This document shows positions 12,001-51,000 of a stretch of DNA of 64,000 bases, piece by piece. Position 1 is the first letter of the stretch. Every line of letters starts with the position of its first letter. The stretch covers positions 1 through 64,000 of the forward strand of contig JAVVFY010000003.1 in the NCBI GenBank assembly GCA_032249395.1, read 5' to 3'. This DNA is from Candidatus Aenigmatarchaeota archaeon. Its GTDB lineage: Archaea > Aenigmatarchaeota > Aenigmatarchaeia > CG10238-14 > SpSt-28. The position numbers are program-made.

Positions 12001-15000
12001 AAAAGGCCCGTTCATTCAACTTTTGCAGAATTTACCAAACAATGTAGTTTGCATACTTGTTTTTGGAAGTTATGCTAGATTCTCTGCTGAAAAAGAAAGC
12101 GACTTAGACTTACTTTTTATAACCACGAATAATAAAACTGAAAAAATAGAAAGAATTCTTGAGGAATCTTTTGTTACTTTTGGTAAGGTTTCTGCTCGAT
12201 TGATAACGATTGATGAATTTACCAAAAGCAAAGATACAGATACTATGCTTAAGCAAATAATCAAAGAACATATTTGTGTTTTTAACGCATGTAAATTTGT
12301 TGAACTTATTTCAGAATAAAAAATTTACTCGATTTTTAGAAACGTAGAGAGCATGAATGGTAGAAAAGGAAGCAAGAATAGATAGCTGATTTTTCCGTAG
12401 AAGAAAAGCAGGATATCCGTAAAAAGAAAGAAAAATGAAAGTATCAGCATTAAAGAACTCATTCTTCTGTCTTCGAGTAAAAGAAATGTGATAGAAACGC
12501 TAAACATAGCAAGAAAAGAAAGAAATACCACAAAAAAGTATGAAAGTGGAGAGACACACATTAGCAAGGAATAAGTTTGAAGACTAGCATCTAGAATAAT
12601 GTTTTTGTTGTAAGAACAAGAAAAAATACTACTAGAAAATACCTTAACTGCTTCTTTAATTAATGGCAACGAAAATGATACAATTACCACTGCTAAGTTA
12701 TTAACTTTCATGAGAAAATATGAATAGAAAAGAATTTATACTTTTACTTCTAGAAGAAAAGCCCATACTCAAAAATATTACACTTGCTATTTCAGTATAA
12801 ACCTAAGATACTAATACAATTCTTTATAAATAACTTGGACACTTAAATATACAACTTACCATAAACGAAAGAGTTTTTTTATTTTATCCCAGATGCTTTC
12901 TTTTTCCACATAAAATTCTTCGCTAATTTCTGCTGCCAATTTTTTAAAAGACCTCGAAGCTTTTGTTCTTCCATCAAGCAAAACAACTGGAGTCATTTTA
13001 GAAATAGATTCAATGACTTTTTTGTCAAAAGGAATTTGTCCTATAATTCTTGCTTCAGTCAACTCTTCTATTTGTTCTAATTTCATCTCATGTTCTTTTC
13101 CTTCAACTTTATTCAAGACTAAACCTCTTAATGAAACGTTTAAAGCATGAACGATTTTCTTAGCTTTCAATCCAGAAATAATTGCTGCCATGTCAGGATT
13201 AGATACAAGAAGAATTTGATCACTCGCCTTTATGGTTGAAATTACCTCTCTTCCGATTCCAGCGGCTCCGTCAATTAACACAAAATCATAATTATCTTTA
13301 ACCTTGTCGATTTTTTCTTTAAGCTTAGAAGTATCCGGATGCTCCACCATTGCACTTAAGCTAGCTGGAATAATATGAACTCCACTTGGATGAATGTAAA
13401 TAGCTTGAGTTATATCAATCTTATCTTCTAGAACTTCAGTCAAAGTATTCTCTTGAGAAAGCATTCCAAAATGAATTCCCAAATTTGGTGTTGTTATATT
13501 ACCATCCACAGCCAAAACTCTTTTTCCAAAAAATTTTACTAGCGCTGAAGCCAAATTAGAAGTAACAGTAGTTTTTCCAACCCCTCCTTTTGCGCTTATT
13601 ATCCCAATAACTACCATCTAAATTACCTCTTTCATTTTTTTCAAAACTTTCAAAACATCTTGTTTATCTTTAACTTTAATTGGTTCAACAAATTTTGGTT
13701 CGACAGATTCTTTTTTGACTTCTTTATTTTCAATTTCTTCATTTTGTATATCTTTACTATCTTTCAAATTTCCAGAGGCTTTAGAATCTTCAACTTTTGT
13801 TTCTTTTAGATTAATCGTCTCTTCTTTTGTTTCTATCTTCTCATTTTTCGAGTTATTATCCTGAGGTTTGAGTTTTTCAATAACTTCCTCCTTTTTTATA
13901 TCTTTTCCTCTTTTTTCTTCAGTTTTTGCTTCATCTCTATTCTTTTCATTTTCAACTTCCTCTTTTCTTTCAACAAGAGGAATAGCTTCTATTCCTCCGC
14001 TCTCTATAAACTTCTCTATTCTTTTCCACTCTTCTATTAACTGATCTTCAATTTTTCTAAGTTTTTCCAAAGCCTTAGATTTAGCCAAGTTATAATCTCC
14101 TAAGCTTATTTTTCCTAGTTGAAGTTCGGTTTCTAATGATTTTATTAACAACAAAACATCATCCCTCTCCTCTCTAAGTCTCTTTATAGTTTCTGGTATC
14201 TTCGCTTCAGTTATCGGCAGGACTTTATTAATTTCATCTATTTGAGATCTAATTGACATTATATCTGTTCTAAAAGACTCTATGTCTTTTAAAGTAGCAA
14301 CATTTTCTAACCTTGTGTTAATAGTTTCAACATTTCTGGAAAGTTCTCTTACGCTTTCTTCTAAAGAGTCCAACCTTGCTTTAAAAATTGGAAATTCTTC
14401 TAGATTTTTACTCATTTCAACAAATGCCTTCTCAACTTGTGTGGCCAATCGCTCAATATATCTCACAACTTCCTTAATTTCTTTAACCTTAGCTGATATG
14501 TCTTTGGAAATTTTTGTAAGATTTTCTAAACTTCCTGCACTCCTCAAAAATTCATTTATCTTAGACACTTTTTCTCCAACATCCTCAAGCTTTTTGTCAG
14601 TCTTTTCTTTAAATACCTCAAAACTCTCCAAATTTTTCTCAATATCTCTAATTCTCTTTTCAATTTTTTCAGGTCTCAATTCCTCTATATCGCTAGTCAA
14701 CTTTTCAACCTTCATTTCAAGTTCTTTTAGAGCTCCATCTGTCTGAAAAACCATAGAACGAACTTCTCCTAAAGCTTCCGCTAAACTTCTTATTTGCTCA
14801 TTCAAAGTCTTATCTGTATCTCTTAGAGACTCTATAAATGCTTTAATCTTTTCTAGCTCAACGCCAATCTTGCTTTCGGCAGCTTCTTCTTTTGTCTCCT
14901 CAACCTTAACCTCTTCAACTTCTTTAGGAGGATTCATAGGATCAATAAAAACTGGACCTTCTTCTGCAGAACCTTCCTGCTTATATGGATTCTCTTCAAC

Positions 15001-48000: not shown

Positions 48001-51000
48001 ACTTCCTCTCCAGGATTCGGACTTACATAACTCAATTTAACTTTAAGCTTGTACAAACCTGGCCTAAATTCTCTTTCTGCATCTAACTCAACAACAAACT
48101 TTCCAGGACCAACTTGAGTATAATTAACTTCAGTTATATTTCCATCTGGATCTACAACAAAAGCTTGCAAAGTAGCATTTGGAAATATTTCGCCAGTATC
48201 TTCATAAATAGCTGAAATCTCAAACCTTATTTTTTCTCCAAGCTCATAATTGAACTTCTCTTGCTTAACTTTTGGTTTTACTTTTATGTGCTTCAAAACA
48301 TTGAAATCAAGAGTTTTGCTTGCATTTCCAAATTCACTTTCAGCAAAAATTTCTGCTGAATATTTACCATAAGCTTTTGGCAAAATTTCAAAAGTGAAAT
48401 TAAAGCTACCATTAACAAATTGCTCATCCTCAAAAACGACTTTACCTTTAACATCTTTAACTATAAGCTTAACTCTAGAATTAACCAAATTTCCATTGTA
48501 GTTAACATTTCCGTAAATTGAAACGACTTTCCAATCGCCTTTTCCTTTTGTGATATTTTTAACTGAATAAAATGCTTCGACTGATGGAACAAAACTTATT
48601 TTAGGTTGCGAATAGTTAGATACAACAAAATAAAAGCTTGTTTCATTTTTCAAGCCTAATGCTTCTATTATCAAATAATAAATTCCATCTTCGCTAAAGT
48701 TAGCAATTAGAGAAGAATTAAAGCTACCGTTAACAATTTCTATTTCTTTTGAAAGCAAGAGAGAAGAATTAAATTGCAAGCTTAAGTTTGCGGTAGCATT
48801 AACTTTTTCTCCATCAACAACAAGTTCTCCAAAAATGTTAATTGTTTCGTTTGAAGTGTAATTTGATTTATCAGTTAAAATTGTCAAGTATGTCTGATTA
48901 GTTTGAGTAATATTTTCACTTACGTTTTCAGAAGGAATTGTAGTTGTTGTTACAGAAGTTGTAGTAGTTATCTCTTCTTTTCTCTCAATTGTTATTTCAG
49001 CTTCACTTGGATTCAAATAATCTTTTTCACTTCCTTTGAAAACTGCTTTTACTTTTGATGCATTGATAAGATTAAAAGAAAATGTTGAAATTCCAGAATC
49101 ATCTGTAAAATTGCTACCGACAAAATTCCCATCAACATAAAATTCTATTTCTTTATTTGGAACAAAAGAACCATTATCGAGCAAAAGCTTAGCAGCTATT
49201 AAACCATTCTCAACTTTCAAATCTATTGAAGTGTTTGCAAAAACTTCAACTTTAATGCTTTCTTCAACAACATTAGAAACTCCAATAAATCTTCCCGTAA
49301 TATTACTCCAGTTTGTTGCTAAAAGAATTGCAGAAGCTAGAGCAATGAAAAGTAAAGAAGTAATTATTTGGGTTTGTCCCTTCAAACTTTTTTTCGATTT
49401 TAAATTTAGTAATGCAAAAAAGAAAAGAATTGCAAAAGAAATTGCAAATGGTAAGAAAATTAAGAAAGGTAAAGTTAAGTATGGCAAAAATTCTTCAATA
49501 AGACTTTGACTTTTTAGTTTAAACTTACTCATAAGCTACTCTCACCTTTATCTCACTTTCTCCAAGTTTCGTTGATAAATCGCTTTTAACAGAAAACTCT
49601 AACTCGCAATAAGAGTTTACTTCGATTACATTGCAAACTTTTTCTAAGGCGTCTGTCGAAAATCCTTTCGGCAAATCGACAGATACTCGAACGTTTGTGG
49701 CATTAGCACTTCCTTCATTGCTAACAACAACTCTTAACAAGAAACTCTCTCCTCTTGTTATTCTGCTTTTATCGGTGCTTAATCTCAAAGAGATTTTTGG
49801 TTTTGCGATAATTTCTGTTGTTTGAGAAATTTGCGTAGCAGATGTCGAAACGTTTTCACTTGCTCCATTTTCTTCTGTGCTATTAGATTCATTCATTTGA
49901 GTAAGTTCAGAAGAAGTTGTATTCGACGAGTCGACAGATTGTTGTGAAGTTGAGTTTTCAGAAACCAAATTTGTCGAAGCTGACTGTTCACTCGAATTTT
50001 CATTTGTTGTCAAATTTAGTGAGCTGTTCATAGCTTCTTGAGCAATCGACAAGTAGAAAAAGAAAGAAAAGGCTAAGAAAATTGCCAATAAAGCTAGAAA
50101 TTGGGCTTTTCCCTTCATTTTTAACTCCTATTGCTTAACACTAATGATAAGCAGAGTTGTTTGTCGACCCATATATAATTTTTTTAACAACCTGTCGAGA
50201 GTGAAAATCGACAGTTCGACACCTCGACAAAAAAGAAGAATAGCTTTTATTTTTAGAATAAAAGAAAGAATATATGCTTAAAGAGATTTTTGGTTTGAAA
50301 AAAGAAAACAAAGATGAAAAAATTGATGAGATGATTAAGTTAATTGATTCTCAGCTCTCTATGATTTCTATGGAAATTGAGAAGTTGAAGAATTTGGGTT
50401 CTAAAATTGAGAATATTGAGAAAAAAATAGCAATTTTAGAAGAGCTTATTAAAGAACAAGGAGTCGAAATAAAGCCAAAACCGGTTAGTGAGAAAACAAA
50501 AGAAGCAATAAAGACTTTGTTGAAGAGATATGGAAGCTTAAATGCCTGGCAGGTTGCCAAATTATTAAACATGTCTAGAACAAGATGCGCAGAATATCTT
50601 AAGCAAATGGAAGAAGAGGGGATTTTAGTCTCTCAATGGAAGAGTCGAAAAAAGTACTATTCGATTCGACAGTAAAATTTTTCGATGAAGTTTTTATTCG
50701 ACAGATCGACTTTATCCTCTCTATAGATTGTTCCCCTATGAAGTTTGTTTATTTTCAAGAATTTCGACAGTTTAACAAGCTTTATTTTTTGAGTAGTCTG
50801 AAGAAAGTAAGAGGAATTCTGAGTTGTCGAAAATCCGACAGTTATAATAGCTAGTTAGTTTTATTATTTTTTCTGTCGAAGTAGTTGTCGAGATGCTGTT
50901 GGGAGAGAATTGAACAAAAAATGCATTATTGAAGGTGCATTCATCTCAATCTGTCGACAAAAATCGACTGTTTTTCTGAAATTCTCTACTTACTAGAGAT

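Follow-up and report, generated by a model that had tools for sequence, protein, structure and literature searches.

The window, a 64,000-nt stretch covering positions 1 to 64,000 of contig JAVVFY010000003.1 from a Candidatus Aenigmatarchaeota archaeon, contains 0 N and carries one giant gene (Table 1). This gene occupies 34,305 nt of the 752,806-nt assembly (4.56%), in agreement with the survey's finding of an 11,434-aa protein taking up 4.6% of the assembly, and the Ser/Asn/Thr-rich composition described there was also reproduced (S 9.5%, N 8.9%, T 8.7%). The giant, partner and MinD genes lie on the same strand and are packed end to end, the partner's GTG start sharing one base with the giant stop codon. 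A coiled-coil gene and a MinD/ParA ATPase had been placed downstream in the same direction, and both were found there. On the other side, the upstream gene and the giant gene share 8 nt, the stop of the former overlapping the start of the latter. A homologue of this upstream gene takes the same overlapping position in G162, a genome of the same genus (32% identity over 189 aa, E 4e-21).

Table 1. Features of the giant gene and its neighbours (nucleotide positions in the window; residues are those of the giant protein unless a gene is named).
Feature	Position	Strand	Description
MinD gene	12856..13617	-	archaeal MinD-type ATPase; TIGR01969 211.4 bits vs cut-off 201.75; abuts partner gene
Partner gene	13618..15228	-	536-aa all-helical, highly charged, rod-like protein; GTG start
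Giant gene	15228..49532	-	open frame, 11,434 codons + stop; ATG start
C-terminal helical (coiled-coil) tail, last 70 residues	15231..15440	-	model helices 361-386, 392-406, 410-428
HerA-clade P-loop ATPase core, residues 11,067-11,364	15441..16334	-	Pfam DUF87/HerA_C, structure match
Walker A GGTGSGKT, residues 11,120-11,127	16152..16175	-	
Single C-terminal transmembrane helix, residues 11,033-11,066	16335..16436	-	hydrophobicity; model helix 39-69
Ectodomain, residues 76-11,032	16437..49307	-	beta-sandwich (Ig-like) domains; N-glycosylation sequons enriched
Core array of diverged repeats, residues ~2,900-8,950	22683..40835	-	period ~330 aa
N-terminal hydrophobic segments, residues 15-45 and 53-75	49308..49490	-	putative signal anchor or signal peptide
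Upstream gene	49525..50118	-	197-aa secreted or anchored protein; N-terminal hydrophobic segment, Ser/Thr/Asn-rich linker, NPCBM_assoc/DUF11-type beta-sandwich

Read support, previously unchecked, was assessed by comparing 20,000 of the gene's 34,305 nt with four sequencing runs. No indel was listed across this 20 kb, and all 30 bins of the comparison were covered in each run. A metagenome contig from another study covers 15001-24193 gap-free, and the 10,147-aa orthologue in G162 runs colinear with the frame. Elsewhere in the phylum, frames with the same motor measure 11,428, 11,262 and 11,249 aa and go up to 14,526 aa, so the giant protein is not the largest of its kind. The assembly thus has support from independent metagenome contigs and from orthologues that are similarly long. 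The gene does lie on a single MAG contig and does contain internal repeats, at which four short-sided joints (23-76 nt) were seen in other runs; however, these repeats share no more than 79% DNA identity, over stretches of 75 nt or less, and chance cannot yield a 34-kb open frame at 31-37% G+C. That the gene is an artefact, whether wrongly assembled across repeats (a chimera or misjoin) or dead and left open by chance, can be set aside as negligibly probable.

The hydrophobic helices reported at the N terminus and near residue 11,040 were both recovered. The G162 orthologue starts with a single hydrophobic segment, equivalent to the second one of the giant protein, which suggests that the first (residues 15-45) may be lineage-specific or may lie upstream of the true start. 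The C-terminal helix contains the top 19-residue Kyte-Doolittle window after residue 10,900 (1.74), a value that no such window reaches in residues 76-10,900, and 14 short relatives have a hydrophobic segment that aligns with this helix. Outside the motor, Pfam detected beta-sandwich families only (MG2, Filamin, YtkA, Big_1, Big_7, Invasin_D3 and NPCBM_assoc), as expected of the Ig-like ectodomain that had been proposed, and the leads from a feature search of residues 80-1,500 were all of DUF11/CARDB/MG2 type and scored below 0.9. Residues 81-11,029 hold 484 N-X-S/T sequons, compared with 176 +/- 11 in 200 composition shuffles, and the cytoplasmic part holds none. In addition to the core array, a smaller repeat block was found at residues ~1,500-2,150. 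Repeat tiles share 28-42% amino-acid identity with each other, and repeat offsets peak at 330, 660, ~1,000-1,060 and ~1,300-1,400 residues. Between the same-genus orthologues the motor is 88% identical, versus 33% for the distal ectodomain; this faster divergence fits a role for the distal part of the fibre in host recognition.

On the cytoplasmic side lies a 369-residue HerA-clade ATPase, whose helical tail is kept in short relatives. Here the survey's P-loop domain was recovered, with Walker A at residue 11,120 and Pfam DUF87 at 11,093-11,228, plus HerA_C. The HerA/FtsK/TcpA fold assigned to it was upheld by a fresh AlphaFold2 model of the last 430 aa (pLDDT 87.3, pTM 0.80), for which Foldseek ranked HerA 4d2i first (E 4e-13), followed by defence HerAs, FtsK 2ius and TcpA 6o1w. 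VIA-align also placed HerA first, with a Z of 26.1 for HerA 4d2i (rmsd 2.8, 253 aligned), 23.7 for VirB4 4ag6, 20.0 for TrwB, 18.6 for FtsK and 17.9 for EssC; EccC was also matched. In a PDB sequence-profile search, eight of nine matches were HerA-family proteins, HerA itself being the best (E 2e-11), and VirB4 was absent from the nine. Pfam likewise found no VirB4 N-domain and no FtsK_SpoIIIE match on the giant protein. The best partial NCBIfam matches were to CedD (E 3.3e-11; 42.6 bits vs a cut-off of 600) and HerA (far below its cut-offs), both confined to the P-loop region. Only ~50 residues separate the transmembrane helix from Walker A, so that the motor has neither the HerA barrel nor the VirB4-like N-domain of CedB/CedD. 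All 334 motor sequences compared carry the Walker A Lys, R268, R271 and Q282, and the Walker B residues are nearly invariant (D in 333, E in 332). Based on this conservation, we predict that the motor is very probably active as an ATPase. The central description, in which one membrane helix links an adhesin-like, outward-facing giant to an intact HerA/FtsK-superfamily ATPase, therefore stands on the Pfam matches, the model and the 334-sequence alignment.

Sequence searches also confirmed that relatives of the motor are spread over DPANN archaea. In all, 372 representatives (50% identity) match the motor at E<=1e-30. The motor occurs in 113 proteins of 3,300-10,500 aa and lies at or near the C terminus in those also found by the representative search. 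Short family members of ~620-680 aa possess only the transmembrane helix, the motor and about two Ig-like domains, suggesting that the conserved core is the membrane-proximal unit. Of 80 related loci, 77 have a partner homologue downstream in the same orientation, and a coiled-coil partner gene was downstream in all four loci examined in the Nanohaloarchaeota phylum. The partner protein has a conserved 290-aa core and its profile is specific: of 961 frames in its own genome it matches just the partner itself, the next best having an E of 0.002. This conservation speaks against the 'one-gene machine' that had been envisaged. MinD had also been counted in the unit; it occurs at only 13 of 80 related loci, is absent after the partner gene in G162, and is a lineage-specific neighbour outside the conserved core.

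The survey held that neither function nor architecture had been described for this family, yet two papers show the architecture to be in print already. According to Hamm et al. 2019 (PMC6642349), SPEARE proteins are largely extracytoplasmic and carry a transmembrane domain close to the C terminus, the conserved C-terminal region being cytoplasmic; SPEARE-like sequences are noted in Woese-, Aenigm- and Micrarchaeota and Altiarchaeales, with cytoplasmic domains like these in Aenigmarchaeota, a laminin-G domain is ascribed to all SPEARE proteins, and DNA transfer is raised. In La Cono et al. 2023 (PMC10266531), giants of Nanohaloarchaeota have a signal peptide, ~75 Ig-like domains, a transmembrane helix, a cytosolic VirB4/TraG-like ATPase and a coiled coil, and a secretion 'straw' is proposed. 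The giant protein matches the published architecture point for point: N-terminal signal or anchor, thousands of Ig-like residues outside and, close to the C terminus, one transmembrane helix followed by a cytoplasmic P-loop ATPase and a coiled coil. In both cases several per cent of the small genome of a DPANN symbiont goes to the protein. At its C terminus, a 7,378-aa NCBI-named Nanohaloarchaea protein (P0144) shares 58% identity with the motor (98% coverage, E 2e-163), and a protein of Nanohaloarchaeota QJJ-7 shares 55%. In the Nanohaloarchaeota phylum, which likewise has the partner gene, the motor is present in 30 of 70 genomes, in frames of up to 9,433 aa. Six of these 30 carry a second, short motor copy directly downstream, the arrangement reported by La Cono et al. 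2023 (PMC10266531).

There are differences as well. At 11,434 aa the giant protein exceeds the longest published member (9,409), and its source is a hot-spring MAG of Aenigmatarchaeota rather than Nanohaloarchaeota. Unlike published members, it shows no laminin-G (Pfam, E<=0.01), beta-propeller, protease-like or toxin-like region by Pfam. Its locus has MinD after the partner gene and no second short motor gene downstream, the motor being present in a single copy in the assembly. Its motor is nearest HerA, whereas the published ATPases are termed 'type III restriction-like' or 'VirB4/TraG-like' (PMC6642349, PMC10266531). Taken together, these comparisons make us confident that the giant protein is a very large new member of the known SPEARE, or giant membrane-anchored extracellular, protein family with the anatomy described here, the substrate of its motor aside; the assignment draws on named nanohaloarchaeal relatives, architecture and the papers' statements, NAR1_1133, SVXNc_0300 and BNXNv_0298 having been compared by description.

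These observations place a stretch of Ig-like repeats outside the cell, about 11,000 residues long and rich in N-glycosylation sequons, with one helix crossing the membrane. Inside lies a RecA-fold ATPase of the HerA clade that is catalytically intact, is without the HerA N-terminal barrel and ends in a helical tail. The fibre would bind the host cell surface. Like its structural relatives, the motor presumably assembles into a ring, and such rings could gather several fibres at a single membrane site. Almost every related locus encodes a cytoplasmic coiled-coil protein beside the motor, and the two would probably work jointly. We can speculate that the motor, powered by ATP, moves a polymer at or through the symbiont membrane where it contacts the host. 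A host-dependent archaeon would be spending several per cent of a small genome on a glycosylated fibre that ends in a cytoplasmic ATP motor. DNA or another nucleic acid is our tentative choice of cargo, somewhat likelier than the other options while falling short of an even chance, because of the analogy with the membrane-anchored HerA-clade import ATPases CedB and CedD. The partial NCBIfam matches, the net charge of the ATPase core (+16) and the net positive charge of 84% of the 334 cytoplasmic domains were also counted in its favour. A DNA pump is disfavoured by the lack of a membrane channel partner, since TrbL/VirB6, ComEC and the VirB4 N-domain had no match in the organism's own assembly (89.5% complete) and related loci keep no polytopic membrane protein beside the module.

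A motor that moves no cargo across the membrane is a possible but doubtful alternative, in favour of which the missing TrbL/VirB6 and ComEC matches also count. Here a ring would bundle fibres, and motor and rod, with MinD in some lineages, would anchor, position, tension or signal. The near-universal motor-rod gene pair, the motor's own helical tail, the reduced short members and the MinD-type positioning ATPase abutting the pair in this lineage all point this way, as does the finding that no polytopic membrane protein is conserved beside the module in related loci. However, strictly kept catalytic residues would be needless for mere clustering, and we know of no HerA/FtsK-superfamily ATPase that acts as such a device. 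Rather unlikely is type IV/VII-like protein secretion, in which a VirB4/VirD4/EssC-type motor would export effectors or the helical partner to the host, as in the published 'straw' (PMC10266531). VirB4 comes within 2.4 Z units of HerA, TrwB, EssC and EccC are matched too, and the conserved neighbour is all-helical. A WXG100 match in a partner homologue adds to this, but it was found in one of three sequences scanned and is sub-threshold (E 0.0064; 17.2 bits vs a cut-off of 27.3). The partner, at 536 aa with its conserved core, is also unlike small secretion substrates, the PDB profile finds HerAs and not VirB4, and neither the VirB4 N-domain nor VirB6/TrbL is matched in the assembly. An undescribed one-gene contact-and-transfer machine, with the adhesin as membrane anchor of a DNA pump, is improbable: its closest folds are indeed DNA translocases or transfer-machine parts (HerA, DndH, VirB4, TrwB, FtsK) and CedB/CedD share its TM-anchored HerA-clade layout, but the architecture and the DNA idea are already in the literature as cited above, the partner gene is conserved, no channel component was matched, and one transmembrane helix per subunit would make a poor DNA conduit.

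Our preferred reading, a SPEARE-family fibre whose motor may move nucleic acid, can be set against the better-known systems. VirB4, VirD4 (TrwB), FtsK and EssC share the superfamily fold of the motor, but all score below HerA, and VirB4/FtsK-type domains are absent from the giant protein by Pfam. Archaeal HerA (S. solfataricus, PDB 4d2i), which acts with NurA as the translocase of DNA-end resection, gives the best structural and PDB profile match and shares DUF87 and HerA_C; in contrast to HerA, the motor lacks the HAS barrel, is membrane-tethered, has no adjacent NurA and scores far below the NCBIfam HerA cut-offs. An ordinary HerA-like gene (contig C7) and a NurA gene (C8) are present elsewhere in the same genome. 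The Ced proteins of crenarchaeal DNA import have no ectodomain, and their VirB4-like N-domain is missing from the motor, whose CedD match stops at the P-loop region. No CedA-type channel was identified, no search aimed at CedA having been made. Nevertheless, CedB and CedD are the sole experimentally studied membrane-anchored HerA-clade ATPases found in the literature, CedD being a TM-anchored HerA-like ATPase required for DNA import, and they share with the motor a transmembrane helix N-terminal to a cytoplasmic HerA/VirB4-like ATPase (PMC11868833).

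The giant is a genuine gene, though larger members of its family exist. Its frame starts with ATG and stays open across 11,434 codons, the window contains no N, and the gene makes up 34,305 nt of a 752,806-base assembly with a completeness of 89.5%. The composition, the Walker A motif at residue 11,120 and the hydrophobic N-terminal segments at residues 15-45 and 53-75 were all as the survey's finding had stated. Read support for so long a gene, which that finding had left unchecked, was provided by a comparison of positions 15001-35000 (20,000 of the 34,305 nt) with four runs: 30/30 bins were covered in every run and no indels were listed. 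The central 10 kb of the gene is near-complete in four hot-spring metagenome runs from four studies (three possibly the source). In a run from another study, a ~96%-identical strain gave a single contig spanning 15001-24193 with 342 substitutions and no gaps, and this contig joins the motor and its membrane helix to 7.8 kb of ectodomain. The sole irregularities in 15001-35000 were four joints with sides of 23-76 nt, located at repeats, which we read as assembly-graph noise. In a metatranscriptome run (X19), each of the 30 bins had contigs at 90-99% identity; contigs from an RNA library are no proof of transcription. The ectodomain contains a long repeat array (period ~330 residues) whose tiles share 28-42% amino-acid identity, and the longest DNA repeats in the gene are at most 75 nt long and at most 79% identical. 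Since the repeats are old and diverged, repeat collapse or a misjoin is unlikely. A colinear orthologue of 10,147 aa is encoded by a genome of the same genus (G162). The motor, the cytoplasmic ATPase at the C terminus, was present in 94 of 201 sampled genomes of the phylum, or in 46 of 92 when only those of at least 90% completeness are counted, and motor-bearing frames there include ones of 11,428, 11,262, 11,249, 13,242-13,524, 14,236 and 14,526 aa. Many of these genomes carry two or three motor-bearing genes, e.g. of ~2,200, ~2,950 and >10,000 aa, which suggests that each cell has a set of fibres differing in reach or targets.

Outside the motor, Pfam matched beta-sandwich families alone (MG2, Filamin, YtkA, Big_1, Big_7, Invasin_D3 and NPCBM_assoc). 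Residues 81-11,029 hold 484 N-X-S/T sequons, compared with 176 +/- 11 in composition shuffles (a 2.75-fold enrichment), and the 369 cytoplasmic residues hold none. This distribution fits a glycosylated exterior and an intracellular motor. The sole strongly hydrophobic stretch past the N terminus lies at residues 11,033-11,066 and is followed by a basic stretch; every 19-residue window in residues 76-10,900 falls below it in hydropathy. The N terminus of the G162 orthologue has one hydrophobic segment instead of two, so the first segment of the giant may be lineage-specific. Identity between the two orthologues is 88% in the cytoplasmic domain, 80% in the TM region, 58% in the membrane-proximal 1,000 residues and 33% in the distal 1,000. 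A fixed engine with a fast-evolving tip is the pattern that, judged from these alignments, would be expected of rapidly evolving host recognition.

Proteins of this design have been described before. According to the available sections of PMC6642349, the giant membrane-anchored SPEARE proteins of Nanohaloarchaeota reach 8,553 aa, their cytoplasmic C-terminal region is the most conserved part, and SPEARE-like sequences are known from Woese-, Aenigm- and Micrarchaeota and from Altiarchaeales. The same sections report proteomic evidence that a SPEARE protein is made and suggest a tie to the uptake of genetic material. In the available sections of a re-analysis (PMC10266531), these giants are described as running from a signal peptide through ~75 Ig-like domains and a transmembrane domain to a cytosolic VirB4/TraG-like ATPase, which a coiled coil follows, with a second ATPase gene downstream, and a secretion 'straw' is proposed. 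These two papers contradict the survey's claim that no architecture had been described, and its idea of DNA transfer loses its novelty to the suggestion in PMC6642349.

The survey's view of a DPANN-wide family was borne out. Named relatives of the motor belong nearly all to DPANN phyla (Aenigmat-, Micr-, Woese-, Pace-, Nano-, Nanohalo-, Parv- and Altiarchaeota); a few others bear the label Thor-, Heimdall- or Hadarchaeales. Relatives were found in 577 proteins of 754-2,150 aa and in 113 of 3,300-10,500 aa, and 372 of 1.84 billion cluster representatives matched the motor at E<=1e-30. In species-representative genomes, a relative was encoded in 559 of 614 pattern matches; the nearest, at 99% identity, is titled Candidatus Aenigmatarchaeota archaeon. 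The motor shares 58% identity with the C-terminal end of a 7,378-aa protein named Nanohaloarchaea (P0144) and 55% with a protein of Nanohaloarchaeota QJJ-7. In the phylum of QJJ-7, 30 of 70 genomes carry the motor (E<=1e-20) in frames of up to 9,433 aa, and in six of them a second motor copy of 620-680 aa directly follows, which is the published arrangement. The accessions of 10 relatives had no overlap with those quoted in the available text of PMC6642349, and a query with the C-terminal 460 aa of a nanohaloarchaeal protein found four related loci, none from a cultivated strain. A search for papers joining DPANN with HerA, FtsK or DUF87 found no relevant one. SPEARE is unmentioned in the published version of PMC11291902 (Hamm et al. 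2024), where the coiled-coil proteins are those of type IV pilus loci. Based on the named nanohaloarchaeal relatives and the published descriptions, the giant is, with high confidence, a very large new member of the SPEARE family.

The motor was modelled with AlphaFold2 from the last 430 residues and a 15-row alignment (pLDDT 87.3, pTM 0.80). In the model, a juxtamembrane beta-hairpin leads into a long membrane helix; ~50 residues that include two strands come next, then a RecA-like core and finally three C-terminal helices (361-428 of the model, mostly pLDDT >90), which form a coiled coil after the ATPase. Pfam placed DUF87 and HerA_C at residues 11,093-11,228. The top Foldseek match was HerA of S. 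solfataricus (4d2i, E 4e-13), and it also led in VIA-align (Z 26.1, rmsd 2.8, 253 residues aligned), in agreement with the HerA-type fold that the survey had proposed. HerA-NurA (Z 25.2), defence HerA (25.1) and DndH (24.5) came next, followed by VirB4 (4ag6, 23.7, a small gap from HerA within one superfamily), TrwB (20.0), FtsK (18.6) and EssC (17.9). Nine PDB sequences matched a sequence profile built from the family, eight HerA-type (including YjgR) and one weak match to IcmO/DotL, with VirB4 absent among the nine. Both the structure scores and the profile matches place the motor in the HerA clade, and as modelled and aligned it is closer to HerA than to VirB4/TraG. Among 334 family members, the Walker A lysine is invariant (334/334), as are Gln282 and each of the two arginines of the REFRKWG motif, and the Walker B Asp and Glu are kept in 333 and 332. 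Such conservation shows selection for a motor with a working ATPase.

Our studies have also shown that the motor has a constant companion. The gene that follows it encodes an all-helical protein with 46% charged residues and a net charge of -18, and 77 of 80 related loci encode a homologue of it downstream on the motor's strand, which contradicts the survey's 'one-gene machine'. Two of the three remaining loci have <350 nt downstream; the third, L087, has 5,353 nt and no match. Clustering of the 1,361 open frames of the 80 loci gave 78 partner frames, every one of them on the motor's strand, from 77 loci, and the partner core begins at most 1,250 nt past the motor's end in 71 of the 76 loci with a measurable gap. 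In all four loci examined from the Nanohaloarchaeota phylum (L104-L107), the order is giant, short second motor copy and partner homologue (hmmsearch E 3e-29 to 7e-34). Against the 961 frames of its own genome, the partner profile matched the partner alone (next best E 0.002). The conserved core covers residues 118-445, with E151, E155 and P186 invariant in 28 sequences, and the predicted fold is elongated (pTM 0.24).

The partner resembles the SHOCT motif and holds two similar helical hairpins; Pfam was blank in both hairpins even at E<=5, and this identity was rejected. A feature search with the partner returned unnamed archaeal clusters alone, with bacterial BLOC1_2/COG4 clusters scoring <0.8. 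The partner is not mentioned in the examined sections of PMC6642349 and PMC10266531 (section 11), and further literature searches found no description of it.

MinD, which the survey had placed after the partner in the same direction, follows in 13 of the 80 loci and does not follow in G162; it is a local neighbour outside the conserved core. On the other side, the small beta-sandwich gene overlaps the giant's start and keeps this position within the genus. The G162 locus (C1:12000-51000) comprises a small secreted protein, the giant and the coiled-coil partner, without MinD, and farther downstream is one more frame for a surface protein, at least 998 aa long.

Features of the giant's locus, with the separate HerA-like and NurA genes of the same assembly
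Feature	Coordinates	Strand	Remarks
Second large surface protein	4383-10235	-	1,950 aa; NPCBM_assoc, MG2, Big_3_3; no motor
HExxH membrane protein	10265-10723	+	152 aa, polytopic; HELGH within a hydrophobic helix; no Pfam family
HEPN-domain gene overlapping nucleotidyltransferase gene	11211-12319	+	Polbeta/NTP_transf_2; between MinD and HExxH gene
MinD	12856-13617	-	
Coiled-coil partner	13618-15228	-	536 aa
Giant protein	15228-49532	-	11,434 aa
Upstream small gene	49525-50118	-	197 aa; secreted or anchored beta-sandwich protein
tRNA Ile-GAT	51787-51862		
tRNA Gly-CCC	54994-55068		
tRNA Lys-CTT	57877-57950		
HerA-like gene	C7:116-1591		Ordinary, soluble
NurA gene	C8:4036-4830		

The locus is chromosomal and is no obvious mobile element, its neighbours being three tRNAs and ordinary archaeal housekeeping genes. 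Upstream of the giant lie genes for thymidylate kinase, a FEN1-like XPG nuclease, a tRNA-splicing endonuclease and a class I aminoacyl-tRNA synthetase. The HEPN and nucleotidyltransferase genes form a pair typical of HEPN-MNT toxin-antitoxin-like systems. The HExxH membrane protein resembles a small intramembrane metalloprotease. In 17 of the 80 loci, and only in the closer relatives, homologues that all keep the HExxH were found 2-3.5 kb downstream of the motor, on either strand. We can speculate that this protein is tied to the giant, for example by cutting the fibre from the motor; size fractions of SPEARE hint at such cleavage in the available sections of PMC6642349.

DPANN archaea depend on being physically attached to a host. 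Because they occupy 4-5% of a minimal genome and carry a strictly conserved motor, the giant proteins are prime candidates for the contact machine. We predict that the fibre binds the host, that the motor forms a ring and that it co-operates with the rod-like partner. As for what the motor would act on, we lean tentatively, by analogy, towards nucleic acid: nearly all of its close structural relatives handle DNA, CedB and CedD are required for DNA import (available part of PMC11868833), and the ATPase core is basic (net charge +16), 84% of the 334 family members being net positive. However, no channel partner (TrbL/VirB6, ComEC or a VirB4 N-domain) was found in the assembly or beside the module. 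The VirB4 N-terminal domain (PF03135) is absent from the giant protein and from the 89.5%-complete assembly, which also has no match to VirB6/TrbL (PF04610), and across the 80 loci the small HExxH protein is the only polytopic membrane protein with any conservation next to the module. A mechanical or organising role, in which the motor would act on the rod, is the less probable but still serious alternative. Export of protein in the manner of VirB4 or EssC is another alternative, of about the same or slightly lower probability.

A bolder proposal, which we regard as a long shot, is that what DPANN archaea conserve is a membrane device of two genes instead of the fibre. It would consist of a HerA-clade ring ATPase, barrel-less and held by a single TM helix, together with an acidic cytoplasmic rod, and it is possibly a new type of machine. 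Here, the ring would thread, pull or release the rod. Grip or sensing by the host-contact fibre would be coupled to an ATP-driven event inside, or the uptake of host polymer would be gated, and the nearby HExxH membrane protein might sever the fibre from the motor.

The motor shares with HerA, whose fold is nearest, the RecA-like core, the Walker A and B motifs and the arginine finger. In contrast to HerA, it has no N-terminal HAS barrel, since ~50 residues with two short strands are all that separate the TM helix from Walker A; NurA is not adjacent, and the NCBIfam model HerA_Thermprot gives 38.5 bits against a cut-off of 800. The HerA-like gene on C7 aligns along the full length of that model, with a score below cut-off. 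Since this gene and NurA sit elsewhere in the genome, the motor is an extra, separate paralogue. CedB and CedD, for which alone among membrane-anchored HerA-clade ATPases genetic studies were found, likewise combine a TM helix with a cytoplasmic HerA-clade ATPase. The motor differs from them in lacking a VirB4-like N-domain and in its ~50-residue gap between TM helix and ATPase, and its NCBIfam scores are far below cut-off (CedD 42.6 bits against 600, CedB 18.7 against 700). As in SPEARE, the bulk of the giant is extracytoplasmic and built from adhesion-type Ig-like domains, a TM helix and a cytoplasmic region lie at the C-terminal end, and, in the model, a coiled coil follows the ATPase, as in the available description of PMC10266531. 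Unlike the SPEARE proteins in the available sections of PMC6642349, which have at least one laminin-G domain, the giant has no Laminin_G (Pfam E<=0.01, whole protein in three overlapping pieces); laminin-G is not treated as defining SPEARE in the available sections of PMC10266531. Also unlike the arrangement described there, no second ATPase gene of the family directly follows, the motor being single-copy in its own assembly and followed by the partner gene. In conclusion, this window adds no new design to the known SPEARE giants; it adds a motor nearest to HerA, a constant coiled-coil partner and a steep identity gradient.
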